Source of the DNA: Candidatus Methylomirabilota bacterium
GTDB taxonomy: Bacteria; Methylomirabilota; Methylomirabilia; Rokubacteriales; CSP1-6
Direction: 5' to 3'
Length of the DNA stretch: 64,000 nucleotides
Assembly: GCA_035936835.1 (NCBI GenBank)
Contig: DASYVT010000113.1
Location: 8,072 to 72,071 of the forward strand
The notes beneath the pieces are model-generated. The model ran no database searches, was not told where the DNA came from, and saw only the letters and a list, made by a program, of their open reading frames with translations. Shown in pieces: positions 55,107-62,258 of this stretch (the stretch's first letter is position 1; every line of letters begins with the position of its first letter). Made by a program: the position numbers and the translations under genes.

Positions 55107-55979
55107 ATGCCGAAGCTCAAGAAGCCGCAGGTTGTGGAGACGGCCGCACCCGAGCTGGCGCGGCCCGACTGGATCCTGGTGGCGCTGGCCCTCGTGGGGC
55201 TGGGCGTCGCGGGGTACCTAAGCGCGCTCAAGCTCGGCGGCACCCAGGCCTTCCTCTGCCGGGGCGGCAGCGGCTGCGATCTCGTCCAGGCGAGCCGCTA
55301 TTCGCTGCTGGCCGGCGTGCCGACCGCGATGTGGGGCGCCGGAATCTACCTGGCCATCGCCGTGCTCGCCGCGATGCCGCGGACCGCGCGCCGCTGGCAG
55401 GCGGCCTTCATGCTGGTTTCCGGCGCCGTCGCCTTTTCCCTCTACCTGACGTACATCTCGATCTTCGTCATCGGCGCGACCTGCCCGTACTGCCTAGGCT
55501 CGGGCGGGATCTCCGTGGCGCTCCTCGTGGCCATGCTGTGGCGGCGCCCACCGGCGCAGGGCCGGCAGGCCGCGGTCTACAAGCCCGGCAGGCTGGCGGC
55601 GCTCGGGATCACCGCGGGCATCTTCACCGTCGTCTTCGGCGCCTTCATCTTCGCCGCCGACTTCTCGGTGCCGGCCGGCTACCAGTCCGCGCTCGCCCAG
55701 CACCTGGCGAAGAGTCAGGGCATCTTCTACGGCGCCTTCTGGTGACCCGCGTGCACAGAGCAAAAGGCCCGGTTCGGGTCTGCCGCGCGAGAGCTTCCGT
55801 ACATCGAGTGCGATCCCAAGGGCGTCAACCCGCGCCAGGATCTCTGTGAGAAGGTGCCCGTGCGCTCCTATCCGACCTGGGTGATCGACGGGCAGAAATA
55901 CGAGGGCGTCATGTCCCTCGACAGGCTGGCCGAGCTGTCGAAGTTCCGCTACGCCACGCCGACTGCGGCAAAGCCGTGA
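55107..55979 (+). CDS. Vitamin K epoxide reductase (VKOR)-thioredoxin-like fusion with an in-frame TGA at 55743-55745 in the position of the Trx first active-site Cys (FYGAFW-U-PAC). Candidate selenoprotein, or alternatively a Cys-to-stop pseudogene.
   Basis: VKOR loop Cys pair (CRGGSGC) and TM CPYC. Downstream, in the same frame across the TGA: the FYGAxW(C)xxC motif, cis-Pro (SYPTWVIDG) 43 residues later, and a stop overlapping the next gene start (GTGA). A GC-rich hairpin lies 20-40 nt after the TGA. Confidence 0.6.
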
Positions 55980-57646
55980 CAGGGGCCGAGCTCTCCTCGC
56001 TGATGGCGGGCCCGAGCCCGCACGCGGTCCTCGACCTGCGCGAGCGGGCCGCGTACGCGGGCGGCCATATCTTCCGGGCCACCAATTTGCCGCGCTGCCT
56101 CCTCGAGTTCCGGCTGTTCCAGCTGGTGACGGCCAAGCGCACTCCGATAGTTCTCTGCGATGCGGACGGGCGGCTCGCGGCCCTGGCGTTGCCCGCGGTG
56201 CGCGCCATGGGCTTCACCGACGTGCGGGTGCTCGACGGCGGCCTCGAGGCGTGGCGCCGCGAGGGGCGCGGGACGATCACCGGCATCAACGTGCCGAGCA
56301 AGGCCTTCGGCGAGTGGGCGCTCCACACGCTGCGCACGCCGCAGATCCCGCCGCATGAGCTCCAGGCGTGGATCGACGGCGGCCGCGACATGGTCATCGT
56401 GGACTCGCGGACGCCCGAAGAATACGCGCGCGGCTGCATCCCCGGGGCCTGGAGCATGCCGGGGGGCGAGCTCATGCTGCGGATCGGCGAGCTGGCGAAG
56501 AGCCCCAAGACGACCATCGTTGTCCACTGCGGCGGCCGGACGCGGAGCTACATCGGCGCCGAGTCGCTTCGCCGTATGGGGCTGCCCAATCCCATCGTCG
56601 CGCTCGAGAACGGCACAATGGGCTGGGAGCTGGCCGGGCTGACCCTCGAGCGCGGCGCCGACCGCCGCGTGGCGGAGGTTTCCGAGGCGAGCCGGAAGCG
56701 CGCGGCGGCCGCGGCTTTGCTGATCGCGAAGGACGACGGCATCGCCTCGATCGCGCCGGCCGCGCTCGAAGCGCTCTGGGCCCGTCGCGCCGAGGAGAAC
56801 GTGGCGCTCCTCGACGTGCGCACGCGCGAGGAGTACGAGGAGGGTCACGTGGCGGGCGCCACCTGGGCGCCCGGCGGCCAGGCCGTCCAGGCGACCGATG
56901 AGTACATCGCCGTCCGCGCCGCGCGGGTGGTGCTGGTCTGCGACGGCGCGGGGCGGTCGACCATGACCGCCGCGTGGCTCAAGCGCATGGGGATGCCCGA
57001 GGTCTCCGTCCTGGCGGGCGGCCTGCCCGCGTGGAAGGCGGGCGGCGGCGCTGTCGAAACCGGCCACCCGGATCCCGAGCCCTGGGGTTATGTTGCAGCG
57101 CGAGCCGCCGTCGGCACGCTCGGCCCCGTCGAGCTCTTGGCCGCTCTCGGCGGCGCGCAGGCGCCACCCGCTCCCGCGAAGGCTCTCCCCGCTCCCGCGA
57201 AGGCTCTCCCCGCCCCCGCGAAGGCTCCCCCCGCCCCCGCGAAGGCTCCAATGGTCCTGAGCGTGGACCAGAGCGACGTGTATGCGCGCGGCCACGTGCC
57301 GGGCGCGGCGTGGCTCTGCCGGAGCCGCCTCGAATGGAAGGCGCCCCAGGCGCTGTCCGACCGCGCGCAGGCGCTCGTCCTCACGTGCCGCGACGGGCGC
57401 CACTCGACGCTTGCCGCCGCCGCGCTCGCGCGGCTCGGGTATGCGTCGGTCCGCGTGCTCGAGGGCGGCACCCAGGCCTGGGAGCGCAAGGGGCTGGCGC
57501 TCGAGACGGGCAAGACCCTGCTCCTCGACGAGACCGACGACGTCGTGCTCAAGCCCTACGAGAAGGGCCGCGAAGCCATGGAGGCGTATCTGAAATGGGA
57601 AGTCGATCTCGACCCCGCCGCCCTCGACGCCGCGCGGTCAAAGTAG
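55976..57646 (+). CDS. Multi-domain rhodanese sulfurtransferase (4 tandem rhodanese domains, 3 with catalytic Cys)
   Basis: Catalytic loops HCGGRTRS, VCDGAGRS and TCRDGRHS. PAPAKA-type repeat linker. Confidence 0.85.
   Translation: MTGAELSSLMAGPSPHAVLDLRERAAYAGGHIFRATNLPRCLLEFRLFQLVTAKRTPIVLCDADGRLAALALPAVRAMGFTDVRVLDGGLEAWRREGRGTITGINVPSKAFGEWALHTLRTPQIPPHELQAWIDGGRDMVIVDSRTPEEYARGCIPGAWSMPGGELMLRIGELAKSPKTTIVVHCGGRTRSYIGAESLRRMGLPNPIVALENGTMGWELAGLTLERGADRRVAEVSEASRKRAAAAALLIAKDDGIASIAPAALEALWARRAEENVALLDVRTREEYEEGHVAGATWAPGGQAVQATDEYIAVRAARVVLVCDGAGRSTMTAAWLKRMGMPEVSVLAGGLPAWKAGGGAVETGHPDPEPWGYVAARAAVGTLGPVELLAALGGAQAPPAPAKALPAPAKALPAPAKAPPAPAKAPMVLSVDQSDVYARGHVPGAAWLCRSRLEWKAPQALSDRAQALVLTCRDGRHSTLAAAALARLGYASVRVLEGGTQAWERKGLALETGKTLLLDETDDVVLKPYEKGREAMEAYLKWEVDLDPAALDAARSK
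57170..57250 (+). repeat. 21-nt tandem repeat x4 (GCyCCCGCGAAGGCTCyCCCC), encoding an (A)PAPAKA linker inside the rhodanese gene
   Basis: Direct repeats read from the sequence. Confidence 0.7.
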
Positions 57647-57705
57647 CCCGGAAGGCGAAGCGCCCCGCGCGCTCCGCGAAGCGCCGGCCGGCGCGCGCGA
57701 AGCCG

Positions 57706-58596
57706 GTGCGGCTCAAGGCGCCCGGCGCCCTCGTCAGCACCGAGTGGCTGGCCGCCCACCTGTTAGAGCCTCGCGGGGGCGCGGCTGAGCCTCGCGGGGG
57801 CGCGGCTGGCCCGCGCGTGCGCGTCCTGGACGGGACGTGGCACATGCCCCAGCTCCAGCGCGATCCCCGGCGCGAGTTCGAGGACGCGCACATCCCGGGC
57901 GCGGCCTTCTTCGACATCGACGGCATCGCCGACCGCGCGAGCCTGCTTCCCCACATGCTGCCGGGCGCGGCCCAGTTTGCCCGCCAGGTGGGCGCGCTCG
58001 GCATCTCGAACGCCGACCTGGTGGTGGTCTACGACGCGCGGGGAGTGGTCAGCGCCGCGCGAGTCTGGTGGACCTTCCGCGCCTTCGGCCATGACCGGGT
58101 TGCCGTGCTCGACGGGGGCCTGCGCAAGTGGCGGGCAGAAGGGCGGCCCGTCGAGTCGGGCCCCGCGACGCCTGCGCCGCGGCGATTTACCGCGCGGCGC
58201 AGGCTTGCGCTCGTGCGCGACCTCGGGCAGATGCGGCGCAACATGGAAAGCCGCCGCGAGCAGACGCTTGACGCCAGATCGCGCGGCCGCTTCGCCGGCA
58301 CCGAGCCCGAGCCGCGCGCGGGACTGCGCGGCGGCCACATTCCGGGCAGCCTGAACCTGCCGTACGACATGCTCTACCGCCCCGACGCCACGCTCCTGCC
58401 GCCCGACGGGCTCCGCCAGGCTTTCGCCGCAGCCGCCGTGGATCTGGGCAAGCCCGTCGCGACGACGTGCGGCTCGGGCATCACGGCCTCGGTGCTGGCG
58501 CTTGGACTGCATCTCATCGGCCACAAAAAGGTCGCGGTGTATGACGGCTCGTGGACAGAGTGGGCCGGCCGCTCCGACACCCCCGTCGAACCCTAG
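57706..58596 (+). CDS. sseA: 3-mercaptopyruvate / thiosulfate sulfurtransferase (two-domain rhodanese, SseA-like)
   Basis: Motif LVSTEWLAAHL...VRVLDGTWHMP and catalytic CGSGITAS. GTG start at 57706 is inferred. The track ORF (56974) is an over-extension overlapping the previous gene. Contains a 21-nt x2 repeat (EPRGGAA). Confidence 0.8.
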   Translation: MRLKAPGALVSTEWLAAHLLEPRGGAAEPRGGAAGPRVRVLDGTWHMPQLQRDPRREFEDAHIPGAAFFDIDGIADRASLLPHMLPGAAQFARQVGALGISNADLVVVYDARGVVSAARVWWTFRAFGHDRVAVLDGGLRKWRAEGRPVESGPATPAPRRFTARRRLALVRDLGQMRRNMESRREQTLDARSRGRFAGTEPEPRAGLRGGHIPGSLNLPYDMLYRPDATLLPPDGLRQAFAAAAVDLGKPVATTCGSGITASVLALGLHLIGHKKVAVYDGSWTEWAGRSDTPVEP

Positions 58597-58607
58597 GAGG
58601 CTTTGTT

Positions 58608-59168
58608 ATGACGGCGTATACGCTCAAGCAGTTCGTGGACCACCTCGACGCCATCACCGCCGCGGAAGGCGATCCGGCGGTGATCACGGCGAAGGCGGCG
58701 CCGCTCCTGAAGCGACTGTGTCTGAACCCCGACGCCCTCCCGGCCGAGTACCGCACGGCGCCCGCGGGGCAGCGCGGCCGCTACCTGCTCCACCGCGCCC
58801 CGCGCTTCAACGTCACGTCCGTGATCTGGCGCCCGGGCGACGAGGCGGGATCCCACGACCACGAGACCTGGGGGCTGGTCGGCGTCGTGGAGAACGAGAT
58901 ACAGGAGACGCGCTACACGTCAGCCGGCACACGCGACCTCGGCGGCAAGATCACCCTCAAGGTCAAGGAAGTCTTCCACCACAAGGCCGGCGCGGTCTCC
59001 ACGCTCGTTCCGCCCCACGACGAGATCCACGCCATGTACAACCCGACCAAGCGGGATACGGTCGAGATCCACGTCTACGGCAAAGACCTCGCGGGGCTCC
59101 AGCGCCACACCTTCGACAGGGACGGCACGGTCAAGTCCCTCGTCAGCTCCAAGTACATGAATTGCTGA
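58608..59168 (+). CDS. Cysteine dioxygenase type I family cupin (thiol dioxygenase)
   Basis: CDO-family motif (VIWRPGDEAGSHDHETWGLVGVVEN) and metal His ligands. GGAGG RBS. Confidence 0.75.
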   Translation: MTAYTLKQFVDHLDAITAAEGDPAVITAKAAPLLKRLCLNPDALPAEYRTAPAGQRGRYLLHRAPRFNVTSVIWRPGDEAGSHDHETWGLVGVVENEIQETRYTSAGTRDLGGKITLKVKEVFHHKAGAVSTLVPPHDEIHAMYNPTKRDTVEIHVYGKDLAGLQRHTFDRDGTVKSLVSSKYMNC

Positions 59169-59401: not shown

Positions 59402-59923
59402 TTATGGAAGCCTGCAGCGGTCGAAGAGCTCCCGGTCGATTGGGATGTATCGGGAGCTTTCGCGGACAAGATGCCACGAACGCCGGGTTCGTGGAATGGC
59501 ATTTTCCACGACGCGGCCGGTCCGCCTGATCTCCTGCACGGCCGGCGCGAGATCCCCATCGCCGCTGACCAGGATGGCCGCGTCGTAGAGATCGCGGTAC
59601 GCCAGAGAAACCATGTCGGTGGCGATCTTGACGTCCAGGCCTTTTTCGTGCCACACGCCGTCAGCCTGGGCCATCCGTCCCGTCCACACTACGAGTTCCT
59701 GCTGCTGCCTGAGGCGCCGGAGGAACCGTTGCTGGTCTGCGTATACATCGGCGCCCATCTCCTGTGGAACAGCGGCGATGTAGAAGGCCGTCCTCACAAC
59801 GTGTCGTCCCGCAGCCAGCCCAGCGGCGAGCTGCAGGGGAGAGTATCGAGTCCAGCCAAAGACGGTCTTGAACGCCCGGTAGACGTTAGCTCCGTCGATA
59901 AACACCGCGACGCGAACCGGCAT
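59402..59923 (-). CDS. NYN domain (LabA-like, PIN-like) protein
   Basis: Motif VAVFIDGANV...ILVSGDGDLAP. 173 aa. Confidence 0.7.
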   Translation of the reverse strand: MPVRVAVFIDGANVYRAFKTVFGWTRYSPLQLAAGLAAGRHVVRTAFYIAAVPQEMGADVYADQQRFLRRLRQQQELVVWTGRMAQADGVWHEKGLDVKIATDMVSLAYRDLYDAAILVSGDGDLAPAVQEIRRTGRVVENAIPRTRRSWHLVRESSRYIPIDRELFDRCRLP

Positions 59924-60083
59924 GGGTCAGAGAAAGACCCGGCGTCCCGGGGGGGCGCCGGGATACTGACCCACCGTCGCGGATAACCGGGACATGTGGG
60001 GGGGTAATTCGCAGCTGCATTCACATCTAACCGCTACCACGCCCTCCCTGTCAAGCCAATGTCCTGAGCCGGATACACCCGCG

Positions 60084-60923
60084 TCAATAGACCTCGTCGC
60101 GCTCGCCGAACTCGAAGGCCTCGGTGCGATCCTCGAGCTCTTCGGGCGTGACGAGGCCCTTGTCCGCGAGCAGCCGCTCGAAGGAGGCGAGCCAGCGCTC
60201 GTAGTAGCGCGACTCCTCGCCGCGCGCCTCGGCCTGGGCGATCTGGGCGATCAACTGGCGCTGGAACTCCCCCCAGCCGTAGAGACGGTGATCGTGGAGC
60301 GCGACGGCCATGCCGAAGACGCGCCCTTCCCACGGCTCCTCGAAGACCAGCTCGCCGTTCTTGCGCGGCACGGCCGCGGGCCCGTCCATGTTGGCGAGAA
60401 GCCTGTCCGACGCGGCATTGTCATGGAGCGCCGCGGGCGGGAGGCCCGCGGGCGGCGGGACGCGGCAGGCCTTCGGCTGCGGCGCGCCCTGGCGGAGGTG
60501 TAAGTCGGCCACGGGTTGGCCGTCGGGCCGCTCTTCCCACGTGGATGCGGTGAACTGGTAGGCCGCAAGGGCCGGCGGCGGCGGCGACCACTCCTCCGCG
60601 CGGACCAATCCCTCGATCCAGTCGTAGAGCGCCACGACCTGCGCGTCCGTCGCGATCGAGTGGAACCAGGCCTGCCGCCCGTCGAAGAGCAGCATCGCCA
60701 CATTGGCCAGCGCGCAGGGGCCGAGGCAGCCGCCGATGGTGAGATGCACGCGGTTGCGCAGGCTGCGCCGCTCCCATTCGGTATGGTAGAGGTCGCGCGG
60801 CACGGGCGCGTAGCCGTCCTGGACGCGCCCGCAGCAGCAGGCGTCGGCGCAGACGAAGAGCTGCCCGAGCATGCGCGCCACGTGAATGCGTCGGCCGTCC
60901 GGACGCGAGACGATATTGCGCAC
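60084..60923 (-). CDS. Nitrile hydratase accessory/activator protein: a fusion of an N-terminal Cys-rich thioredoxin-like [2Fe-2S]-ferredoxin-like (DUF1636-like) domain with a C-terminal NHase beta-homologous chaperone domain
   Basis: N-terminal Cys pattern CADACCC...GGCLGPCALANV. C-terminal VFEEPWEGRVFGMAVAL...ERWLASFERLLADKG resembles the NHase beta N-terminus and accessory proteins. The GTG start 2 nt after the alpha stop is inferred. The track ORF extends to 61205. Confidence 0.6.
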   Translation of the reverse strand: MRNIVSRPDGRRIHVARMLGQLFVCADACCCGRVQDGYAPVPRDLYHTEWERRSLRNRVHLTIGGCLGPCALANVAMLLFDGRQAWFHSIATDAQVVALYDWIEGLVRAEEWSPPPPALAAYQFTASTWEERPDGQPVADLHLRQGAPQPKACRVPPPAGLPPAALHDNAASDRLLANMDGPAAVPRKNGELVFEEPWEGRVFGMAVALHDHRLYGWGEFQRQLIAQIAQAEARGEESRYYERWLASFERLLADKGLVTPEELEDRTEAFEFGERDEVY

Positions 60924-60925
60924 GG

Positions 60926-61573
60926 CTACCGGGCCGCCGCGGGAGCCTGGCAGAGCGCCACGCCGATCATGGCATCGCGGGTGACGAGCGCCGCCAGCTC
61001 GGCATCCGAGAGCCCCTCGGTGCCTTCGGGGCGCAGCGGCAGCACCATGTAGCGGATCTCGGCGCTCGAATCCCAGACGCGGATCTCGGTGTCGGGCGGC
61101 AGCTCGACGCCGAACTCGACCAGAATCTTGCGCGGCTCGAGGACGGCCCGCGAGCGATAGGCGGGCGACTTGTACCAGACGGGCGGGAGTCCGAGCACGA
61201 TCCACGGGTAGCAGGAGCAGAGCGTGCAGACGACCAAGTTGTGAACGGCGGGCATGTTGTGACCGGGGGGCATGTTGTGGACGACGGGCGTGTTCTCGTG
61301 GACGACCAACTTGTCCCCGCCGCCGCGCCCGGTGAAGCCCAGCTCCGCGATGGCCGCCGTGCCGTCGGTGAGGAGCCGTTGCTTGTACGCCGGATCGACC
61401 CAGGCGCGGGCGACGACCCTGGCGCCGTTCATCGGCCCGACGTCCTTCTCGTAGGTCTGCACGACCGTGTCCACCACCTCGGTGGACAGCAGGCCCTTCT
61501 CGATCAGGAGCGACTCGATCGCGCGCACGCGATGGACCACCCAGGGCTCGGGCTCGGTATGATGGCTGCCCAT
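60926..61573 (-). CDS. nthA: Nitrile hydratase alpha subunit (Co-type, CTLCSC)
   Basis: Metal-binding motif [22 protein letters not shown] (the Thr variant indicates the cobalt type). Conserved N-terminus. The ATG follows the beta stop after 1 nt. Confidence 0.9.
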
Positions 61574-61574
61574 C

Positions 61575-62258
61575 TCAGGCCTCCAGCGGCTGGAGATAAC
61601 TTTCCCAGAGATCGATGTACACGCGCTCCTTCGGCTCCGCGGCGTCTCCCCACAGCTCGCCCGACTCGAAACGCACGCTGTAGAGCGGCTCGGGGCAGCG
61701 GCCGCGCCCGTGCGCATGGGCGTCCGGCAGTATGTAGACGCCGTGGATCGTGTGGATGCGCCCACAGTGCCCGCGAGCATAGCCCGGCAAGCGCGTGTGG
61801 CCGGCCGGCTGCCAATTGCGCGTGACGACGGCATCGCCCGGCTTGAAGCGCGGCGTGGGATTGGGCTCGCTCTTCTCGGCCATGCCCTTGCGTACCACGT
61901 TCATCACCGTGGCGAGAAGCTCCGGGTCCTTGCGATCCGGCAGCGGGGCGTTCAGGTTCCGCTCGAAGTGCTTGGTCCGCGCGTCGAGCTCGTCGCGGCC
62001 GATGACGCCCTTCTCGATCAGCAGGGTTTCGACCGAGGCGAGCCAGTGCTCGTAGTAGCTCGTGTCGAGGTAGCGCGCCTGTCCCATGCGCTCGATGGCG
62101 TGACGGAACTCGTCGATATTGTAGATTCGCTTGACCATGCCGACCAGGTTCATCACGAGCACGGCCTTTTCCCAATCCGCGTGGAAGGCGGGCTCGTTCG
62201 GCTCGCGTTCGATGGGGCCGAAACCATGCTTGCCGCCGAGGTCGTGGACGCCGTTCAT
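61575..62258 (-). CDS. nthB: Nitrile hydratase beta subunit
   Basis: N-terminus [15 protein letters not shown]...[16 protein letters not shown]-terminus GVYILPD...[16 protein letters not shown]. Confidence 0.9.

Follow-up and report, generated by a model that had tools for sequence, protein, structure and literature searches.

A cobalt-type nitrile hydratase cassette whose activator is fused to a predicted thioredoxin-like ferredoxin domain

The DNA considered here, called the window throughout, is a stretch of 64,000 nucleotides (nt) from Candidatus Methylomirabilota bacterium (assembly GCA_035936835.1, contig DASYVT010000113.1, positions 8,072 to 72,071 of the forward strand). Three co-directional genes lie on its minus strand in the order beta, alpha and accessory. 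The first two encode the structural subunits of a nitrile hydratase of the cobalt type (Co-type). The product of the third gene joins a cysteine-rich N-terminal domain, through a linker that is predicted to be disordered, to a C-terminal domain of the nitrile hydratase activator family. The N-terminal domain and its possible part in cobalt insertion are the main subject of this text.

Gene organization of the cassette

The genes, domains and motifs are located as follows, in window coordinates:

61575 to 62258 including stop, minus strand: beta subunit of nitrile hydratase, 227 residues (TIGR03888, PF21006, PF02211)
60926 to 61573 including stop, minus strand: alpha subunit of nitrile hydratase, Co-type, 215 residues (TIGR01323, PF02979)
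61202 to 61231, minus strand: metal-binding motif of alpha, 10 residues with C-T-L-C-S-C (from the translation; invariant in the alpha alignment)
60084 to 60923 including stop, minus strand: fused accessory gene, 279 residues, GTG start (a single open reading frame, with homologues)
60498 to 60923, minus strand: N-terminal domain, residues 1-142, a six-cysteine module with a predicted thioredoxin-like-ferredoxin fold (AlphaFold2, Foldseek, profile search)
60825 to 60857, minus strand: motif F-V-C25-A-D-A-C29-C30-C31-G-R (family conservation)
60714 to 60734, minus strand: motif G-G-C66-L-G-P-C70 (family conservation; aligns with TGCLGPC of 5abr)
60390 to 60497, minus strand: variable linker rich in proline and alanine, residues 143-178 (homologue alignment; low model confidence)
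60087 to 60389, minus strand: C-terminal accessory domain, residues 179-279, homologous to the N-terminal region of beta (TIGR03889, PF21006, Foldseek)

Both structural subunits score above curated equivalog cutoffs of NCBIfam: beta reaches 268 bits against TIGR03888 (cutoff 152.2) and alpha 294 bits against TIGR01323 (cutoff 249.85), with 285 bits against PF02979. The solved structures nearest to the two subunits are those of Co-type enzymes from Pseudonocardia thermophila, Bacillus and Pseudomonas putida, ahead of the iron-type (Fe-type) ones. For beta, the nearest solved chain is 3qxe_B of the P. putida Co-type enzyme (E=1e-60). Alpha scores 253-289 bits with solved Co-type alphas (4ob1, 3hht, 3qxe) and about 189 bits with Fe-type alphas. 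The threonine of C-T-L-C-S-C is the mark of the Co-type, a serine at this position being that of the Fe-type. A gap of 1 nt separates the beta stop codon from the alpha ATG. Judged by their sequences, the three genes are a Co-type nitrile hydratase cassette of beta, alpha and activator. The first-pass annotation had proposed such an operon in this order and with this spacing, and the TIGR01323 and TIGR03888 matches and the metal-binding motif bear it out.

In a mechanical list of open reading frames (ORFs), the third gene starts at GTG 61205, within alpha. This start was rejected as a spurious extension, and GTG 60923, which sits 2 nt past the alpha stop codon, is taken as the real one. The residues RNIVxRxDGRxVxVxR precede the first ATG and are kept at the protein level in an alignment with 21 homologues. 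Because the residues from GTG 60923 to the first ATG are conserved in this way, the cysteine-rich half is coding whichever start is used, and the concern that a correct start might leave the N-terminal region non-coding is thereby answered.

The ORF has no internal stop, and more than 100 homologues keep a single polypeptide despite the differing lengths of their linkers. The protein holds FVCADACCCGR...GGCLGPCALANV and VFEEPWEGRVFGMAVAL...ERWLASFERLLAD. A full-length AlphaFold2 model built with 22 close homologues consists of two folded parts with a disordered stretch between them; its mean predicted local distance difference test score (pLDDT) is 69, and that of the linker is below 50. The linker also differs in length and sequence between homologues. 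Residues 194-263 score 73.2 bits against TIGR03889, the 'nitrile hydratase accessory protein' model (cutoff 46), and residues 179-270 score 59 bits against PF21006 (NHase_beta_N). With Foldseek, the C-terminal part of the AlphaFold2 model finds the beta chain of a Co-type nitrile hydratase, 3qyg_B. These three matches agree with the initial assignment of this half as a beta-like chaperone. From sequence and modelling together, the third gene is read as a true fusion of a cysteine-rich domain, a disordered linker and an accessory domain.

Known Co-type activators are small single-domain proteins of about 100-150 residues. The window protein resembles the activators NhlE, NhhG and P14K (TIGR03889) in that its gene directly follows alpha in a beta-alpha-activator order, in its homology to the N-terminal region of beta and in passing the TIGR03889 cutoff. 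It differs from them in its length of 279 residues, being extended by the 142-residue cysteine-rich domain and the flexible linker. A search of public records found no exact copy of the 279-residue protein.

The cysteine-rich N-terminal domain

Modelled alone with 44 diverse members of its family, the N-terminal domain reaches a pLDDT of 93 and a predicted template modelling score of 0.83. The top Foldseek matches of this model in the PDB are all thioredoxin-like [2Fe-2S] proteins at a Foldseek probability of 1.0, and include NDUFV2/NuoE, Aquifex Fd4 (1m2a), FeSI (5abr), the Rhodobacter thioredoxin-like ferredoxin (9jn8) and HydC. The scores are 2e-4 for 8iuf_V2 and 5.5e-4 for 1m2a_A. The template modelling score is 0.64 for 5abr_A and spans 0.58-0.64 overall, normalised to the small targets. 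When the domain is cut out of the full-length model (pLDDT 69), its Foldseek matches are weak (E 0.3-0.9). Profile searches against PDB sequences lead to the same proteins. The domain profile finds 5abr, the thioredoxin-like [2Fe-2S] ferredoxin of Azotobacter vinelandii, with E=4e-5. A broader family profile finds it with E=8e-6, and finds the N-terminal domains of the HydB-type hydrogenase chains 7t2r_B and 7q4v_B with E=5e-5 to 9e-5. The N-terminal domain is therefore predicted to have a thioredoxin-like [2Fe-2S] ferredoxin fold, and the ferredoxin likeness first suggested for this half holds as far as the fold is concerned.

All six cysteines of the two motifs (C25, C29, C30, C31, C66 and C70) are invariant in the nitrile-hydratase-linked subfamily of fusions, where 55 positions of the domain are invariant among 19 sequences. 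In the family as a whole (44 diverse members), the strictly invariant cysteines are C25, C31, C66 and C70 alone, together with G32 and N74, while C29 and C30 show a conservation of at least 90%. C25 of F-V-C and both cysteines of G-C-L-G-P-C, C66 and C70, align with three canonical ligands of 5abr. In the alignment with the HydB N-terminal domains, C25 and C31 stand opposite a C-x4-C pair and C66 and C70 opposite a C-x3-C pair. A similar pattern of three canonical cysteines and a displaced one has been described for DUF1636 (PMC4520260). Because of these ligand alignments and the DUF1636 precedent, a four-cysteine [2Fe-2S] site made up of C25, C31, C66 and C70 is the most economical reading of the conserved positions. 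The near-invariant extra thiols of C29 and C30 are left unexplained by such a site.

Apart from the fold, the domain shares the F-V-C and G-C-x-G-x-C motifs with the thioredoxin-like [2Fe-2S] ferredoxins (1m2a, 5abr, NuoE/NDUFV2 and the N-terminal domains of HydB and HydC). It differs from them in several respects. Its second ligand would lie close to the first, in a C-x5-C arrangement that contains the CCC run, and it adds a β-hairpin at the N-terminus (residues 2-16) and a PPPP segment at the C-terminus. It is also a module carried on cobalt-insertion proteins, neither an electron carrier in free form nor a subunit of a dehydrogenase.

DUF1636 (PF07845), to which the N-terminal half had also been compared, is a family of predicted thioredoxin-like [2Fe-2S] proteins. 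It is reported as the first gene of a cobalamin biosynthesis operon of Phaeobacter inhibens and is found in the company of cobalamin and cobalt-insertion genes (bioRxiv 10.64898/2025.12.19.695462). The two families are alike in their predicted fold and in having three canonical cysteines and a displaced one (PMC4520260). The company of cobalamin and cobalt-insertion genes is a further likeness, which is true of the domain family and not of this window. The window protein, however, is not a DUF1636 protein. A Pfam scan of residues 1-159 at E<=10 returned neither PF07845 nor PF01257 (2Fe-2S_thioredx), the only match being a chance one to SOCS, and PF07845 weakly matches 7 of 150 representatives of the family (best E 4.3e-5). 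The CCCG motif is distinct, and DUF1636 proteins are described as single-domain (PMC4520260). The searches made found no link between DUF1636 and nitrile hydratase in the literature. By sequence, the domain belongs to a sister family, a distant relative of DUF1636.

Recurrence of the fusion and other settings of the domain

A protein database search found 1206 relatives of the fused protein. The 120 best of these are without exception full-length proteins (257-355 residues, 59-95% identity) and are named either 'nitrile hydratase accessory protein' or, in records of the Joint Genome Institute (JGI), 'cobaltochelatase CobN'. The latter is a misnomer for activator fusions of about 275 residues, which arises because the N-terminal domain is shared with CobN proteins. 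A collection of species-representative genomes contains 370 stretches that code for a relative. Of these loci the best 80 were analysed, their architectures being assigned by tblastn with the four modules. Almost all come from metagenome-assembled genomes (MAGs), either of Chloroflexota or of Rokubacteria/Methylomirabilota; the one with the highest identity (84%) is from a Rokuibacteriota MAG. The arrangement of the window, beta and alpha followed by the fusion in N-C order, occurs in 54 of the 80 loci, and a few more are broken by contig ends. Directly downstream of alpha, the fused gene is present in about 57 loci. The recurrence of the fusion beside Co-type nitrile hydratase in related genomes, put forward as a check at the outset, is thus found. 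The fusion is kept as a single ORF down to about 55% identity and across two phyla, and it is widespread in MAGs and metagenomes of Rokubacteria and Chloroflexota, not peculiar to this genome. An all-against-all clustering of flanking ORFs, noisy because the high G+C content gives many spurious ORFs, found no gene besides alpha and beta that is universal to the 80 loci. Two amidase genes follow the cassette in one Dehalococcoidia genome, which fits a route from nitrile through amide to acid. The domain family itself is small, with 511 clusters (50% identity) in a set of 1.84 billion representatives.

Nitrile hydratase is not the only setting of the module. At 14 Chloroflexota loci among the best 80 of 370, the same domain forms the N-terminus of CobN-type proteins of about 1450-1550 residues. 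It is 55-65% identical to that of the window protein and has the same cysteine motifs, but its partner there is a chelatase of about 1300 residues from the B12 pathway instead of a nitrile hydratase chaperone. Family representatives with this architecture of the domain and a long protein match Pfam CobN-Mg_chel. Two gene contexts annotated with Pfam read CbtB-CbtA-[N-CobN]-ChlID-CbiC/CbiX-CbiD-... and CbiD-...-CbiJ-CobW-[N-CobN]. The possibility that these proteins are the magnesium chelatase subunit BchH of phototrophic Chloroflexia was ruled out by their CbtA/CbtB, CobW and Cbi neighbours. Going by its sequence, the domain is also an add-on to the CobN cobaltochelatase within B12 clusters, and the link to cobalt and cobalamin genes expected from the first-pass annotation is real for the domain family.

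In six loci of Thermomicrobiales and Chloroflexia, beta and alpha are followed by a fusion in the reversed order (C-N), a single ORF of 276-301 residues with the accessory domain first. A neighbour-joining tree of the domain groups the domains of these reversed fusions with the CobN-fused ones of the same lineage in 100 of 100 bootstraps, apart from the clade of N-C fusions, which has the support of 74 of 100. Because the tree separates the two, the domain was apparently recruited to the activator twice, independently. The reversed fusions (L071, L074, L076, L078, L079, L080) have a conserved linker motif rich in histidine and glutamate, D-E-H-E-H-Y-E-T-T, which could be an additional metal-binding site.

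The domain is also encoded as a separate gene. On one divergent metagenomic contig (L085:863-2505, Logan ERR13602196), it stands directly upstream of a Co-type alpha, which is followed by beta. The alpha of this contig has a twin-arginine-like N-terminal extension (RRRFMTDAAVTAAAIVG), a sequence that suggests an exported nitrile hydratase. On MAG contigs of Rokuibacteriota and Gemmatimonadales (L063:2662-4916 and L064), a stand-alone domain is followed by the ATPase and permease of an ABC transporter, and neither nitrile hydratase nor CobN is within reach on these contigs.

Among the top 150 representatives of the family, the Pfam families found as partners are:

CobN: 13 of 150
NHase_beta_N: 7 of 150
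DUF1636 (PF07845), weak: 7 of 150
YHS: 4 of 150
NHase_alpha: 3 of 150
FecCD: 2 of 150
HMA: 1 of 150
CbtA: 1 of 150

In metagenomic proteins the domain is fused to YHS/TRASH, HMA, CbtA and FecCD/ABC-transporter modules, although merged gene calls may account for some of them. One such protein, P0211, ends in a clear YHS-type tail, C-x-M...F-C-x-x-x-C.

The fusion had been put forward as novel, and this can be kept in part. No published description of it was found; it is not rare, and databases already hold it under the two names given above. The literature searched, with most subscription-journal papers outside its reach, did not describe a fusion of activator and ferredoxin, nor a CobN extension of this kind. 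New here are the CobN fusion, the activator fusion in reversed order and the separate gene beside a Co-type nitrile hydratase.

Around the cassette, the window encodes rhodaneses, a cupin resembling cysteine dioxygenase, an NYN protein, a methyltransferase, a luciferase-like monooxygenase and a VKOR protein, none of them related to cobalt. In a syntenic soil-metagenome contig (L081), the gene upstream of beta is a SUI1 gene, where the window has the methyltransferase. A larger operon was considered and dropped, as the neighbours are not cobalt-related and the upstream gene differs in this relative. An Rfam scan of the whole window found nothing, so that the operon has neither a cobalamin riboswitch nor any other known RNA nearby. 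Genes of sulfur chemistry adjoin the operon at 55107-59168: a VKOR-family protein, two rhodanese proteins and a weakly matching cysteine-dioxygenase-like cupin. L081 shares VKOR and one rhodanese with the window and, from just beyond this region, also a glyoxalase and an F420H2 quinone reductase. This neighbourhood has no evident link to nitrile hydratase. A protein with four rhodanese domains (55976-57646, plus strand) carries about four copies of a peptide repeat, PAPAKAL/PAPAKAP, between its domains. The G+C content is 0.65-0.70 over 59750-62250, that is, the cassette and its downstream spacer, and 0.72-0.77 in the flanks, which may hint at horizontal acquisition. One further feature lies within alpha:

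61238 to 61294, minus strand: in-frame tandem repeat with an 18-nt unit, 3.2 copies (Tandem Repeats Finder)

This repeat adds 12 residues, 3 residues ahead of the metal-binding motif. The insertion is missing in five homologous alphas, including the syntenic one of L081, and in the solved structures; it could be a true polymorphism or an assembly artefact.

Possible role of the domain in cobalt insertion

The observations to be interpreted are the gene order, the domain identities, the fold, the conserved cysteines, the recurrence of the fusion, its permuted form and the fusions with CobN. Activators of the Co-type keep hold of alpha, are required for cobalt insertion and cysteine oxidation, and afterwards give the apo-enzyme the loaded alpha in exchange. 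In vitro, cobalt enters the complex of apo-alpha and activator only with dithiothreitol (DTT) or 2-mercaptoethanol, or with glutathione (GSH) (PMC3511329), and this need for a reductant in cobalt loading has been ascribed to the breaking of a key disulfide (PMC7329996). Neither paper mentions a role for an iron-sulfur (Fe-S) or cysteine-rich module in nitrile hydratase maturation.

By combining this information with the domain structure of the fused activator, it is possible to outline how the protein might work. The C-terminal domain would act as a beta-like 'self-subunit-swapping' chaperone, which holds apo-alpha during cobalt insertion and then passes the cobalt-loaded alpha to beta. The N-terminal domain, on its flexible tether, would most likely bind a [2Fe-2S] cluster through C25, C31, C66 and C70, with C29 and C30 as two further conserved thiols beside the predicted cluster. 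Its target in cis would be the alpha subunit that the C-terminal domain holds, and it would provide the reducing or electron-transfer step of cobalt loading, for which DTT, 2-mercaptoethanol or GSH stand in in vitro. Its exposed thiols may also hand Co(II) onward. We infer the cluster binding, the redox role and the action in cis, and consider the chances of this reading to be about even. That the domain is, more generally, a shared helper for the insertion of cobalt into enzymes is probable.

Several points weigh against a cluster-binding, reducing domain. The match to the NF041613 2Fe-2S ferredoxin model of NCBIfam (23 bits, E=5e-5) lies far below its cutoff of 195, so that the domain falls short of the curated ferredoxin models, and neither PF01257 nor PF07845 recognises it. 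The second ligand position is displaced, with C-x5-C in place of the C-x12-C or so of classical thioredoxin-like ferredoxins, and the cofactor is not readable from sequence. To our knowledge, the insertion of Co(II) by CobN has no electron requirement, so that a redox role common to both is not obvious. A shared hand-off of cobalt would suit both contexts equally well or better, and the other fusion partners in the family (YHS, HMA, CbtA) belong to metal trafficking and not to electron transfer. As far as we know, classical Co-type nitrile hydratases mature without such a domain, which makes it in principle dispensable. The 64-kb window contains no cobalt-related genes elsewhere.

Some of these points would be accommodated if, instead of an Fe-S protein, the N-terminal domain were a cobalt metallochaperone whose thiolates (C25, C29, C30, C31, C66 and C70) bind Co(II) directly and pass it to the held alpha or to CobN. 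This is the main alternative, possible but less likely than the first reading. Two unrelated machines that insert Co(II) carry the domain, its family includes fusions with metal-binding and transport modules (YHS, HMA, TRASH, CbtA), and the CCC run is conserved far past the need of four cluster ligands. In the model, the C25-x3-C29 pair lies just after strand 1, the place of the active cysteine pair in thioredoxin-fold proteins. Parallels can be found in Sco, which has a thioredoxin fold and a CxxxC motif and loads copper, and in CobW, whose CxCC motif serves for Co(II). According to a review, the path of cobalt from CobW to CobNST has had no demonstration yet, and an intermediary between them is possible (PMC11672702). 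On the other hand, the best structural and sequence matches of the domain are all [2Fe-2S] proteins, and its G-C-L-G-P-C is identical to the cluster motif of 5abr. CobW and the CobN fusion moreover coexist in one B12 cluster, so the domain cannot be a simple replacement for CobW. In a third reading, the domain would be a thiol-disulfide oxidoreductase or a redox or oxygen sensor, with neither cobalt carriage nor ferredoxin electron transfer. Its task would be to protect the three cysteines of apo-alpha that bind the metal from oxidation, or to make maturation depend on the redox state. The thioredoxin-type fold with cysteine pairs spaced C-x3-C is consistent with such a function, and so is the requirement for thiol reductants in cobalt loading in vitro, ascribed to disulfide breaking (PMC3511329, PMC7329996). 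It is nevertheless rather unlikely: CobN offers the domain no obvious disulfide substrate, and the invariant cysteines follow the pattern of cluster ligands and not that of a single CxxC pair. We know of no function assigned to the Fe-S clusters of chelatases. Their presence in several of these enzymes, including ferrochelatases and BchH (review, PMC7689651), leaves some room for a sensing or redox role.

It is very improbable that the fusion is meaningless, a lineage-specific accident or a gene-calling artefact that joins an upstream cobalamin-related ferredoxin gene to an activator. The absence of the domain from classical activators and the disordered, poorly conserved linker would agree with an accident. 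Such an origin is contradicted by the recurrence of a single ORF in more than 100 homologues, to about 55% identity and in two phyla. The apparently independent reversed fusion and the separate gene, both of which also adjoin nitrile hydratase genes, argue against it too, as do the 55 invariant positions of the domain in the 19 nitrile-hydratase-linked fusions.

A cluster-binding, reducing domain thus stays the preferred reading. A wider role can be imagined by analogy with Sco: the domain might be a dedicated cobalt-insertion helper, marked by the CCC motif, which both reduces the acceptor ligands and hands over Co(II), at corrin and non-corrin centres alike. This is speculative, and we regard it as doubtful in this full form.

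The maturation of Co-type nitrile hydratase is of industrial relevance and poses the questions of which cellular factor supplies the reducing step and by which route alpha receives cobalt. One conserved module that is found on both machines, and that apparently came to the activator twice, gives a concrete and testable candidate for the missing step. If the domain is such a helper, it would be the physiological counterpart of the need for DTT or GSH, and also a candidate intermediary between the cobalt supply and CobNST. Co-expression of the fused activator might raise the heterologous production of Co-type nitrile hydratases, and the JGI fusions labelled 'cobaltochelatase CobN' merit re-annotation. 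The module also offers a way into the DUF1636-like proteins of B12 operons, which are uncharacterised. Above all, it is of interest because a single small module joins the insertion of cobalt into non-corrin and corrin centres.

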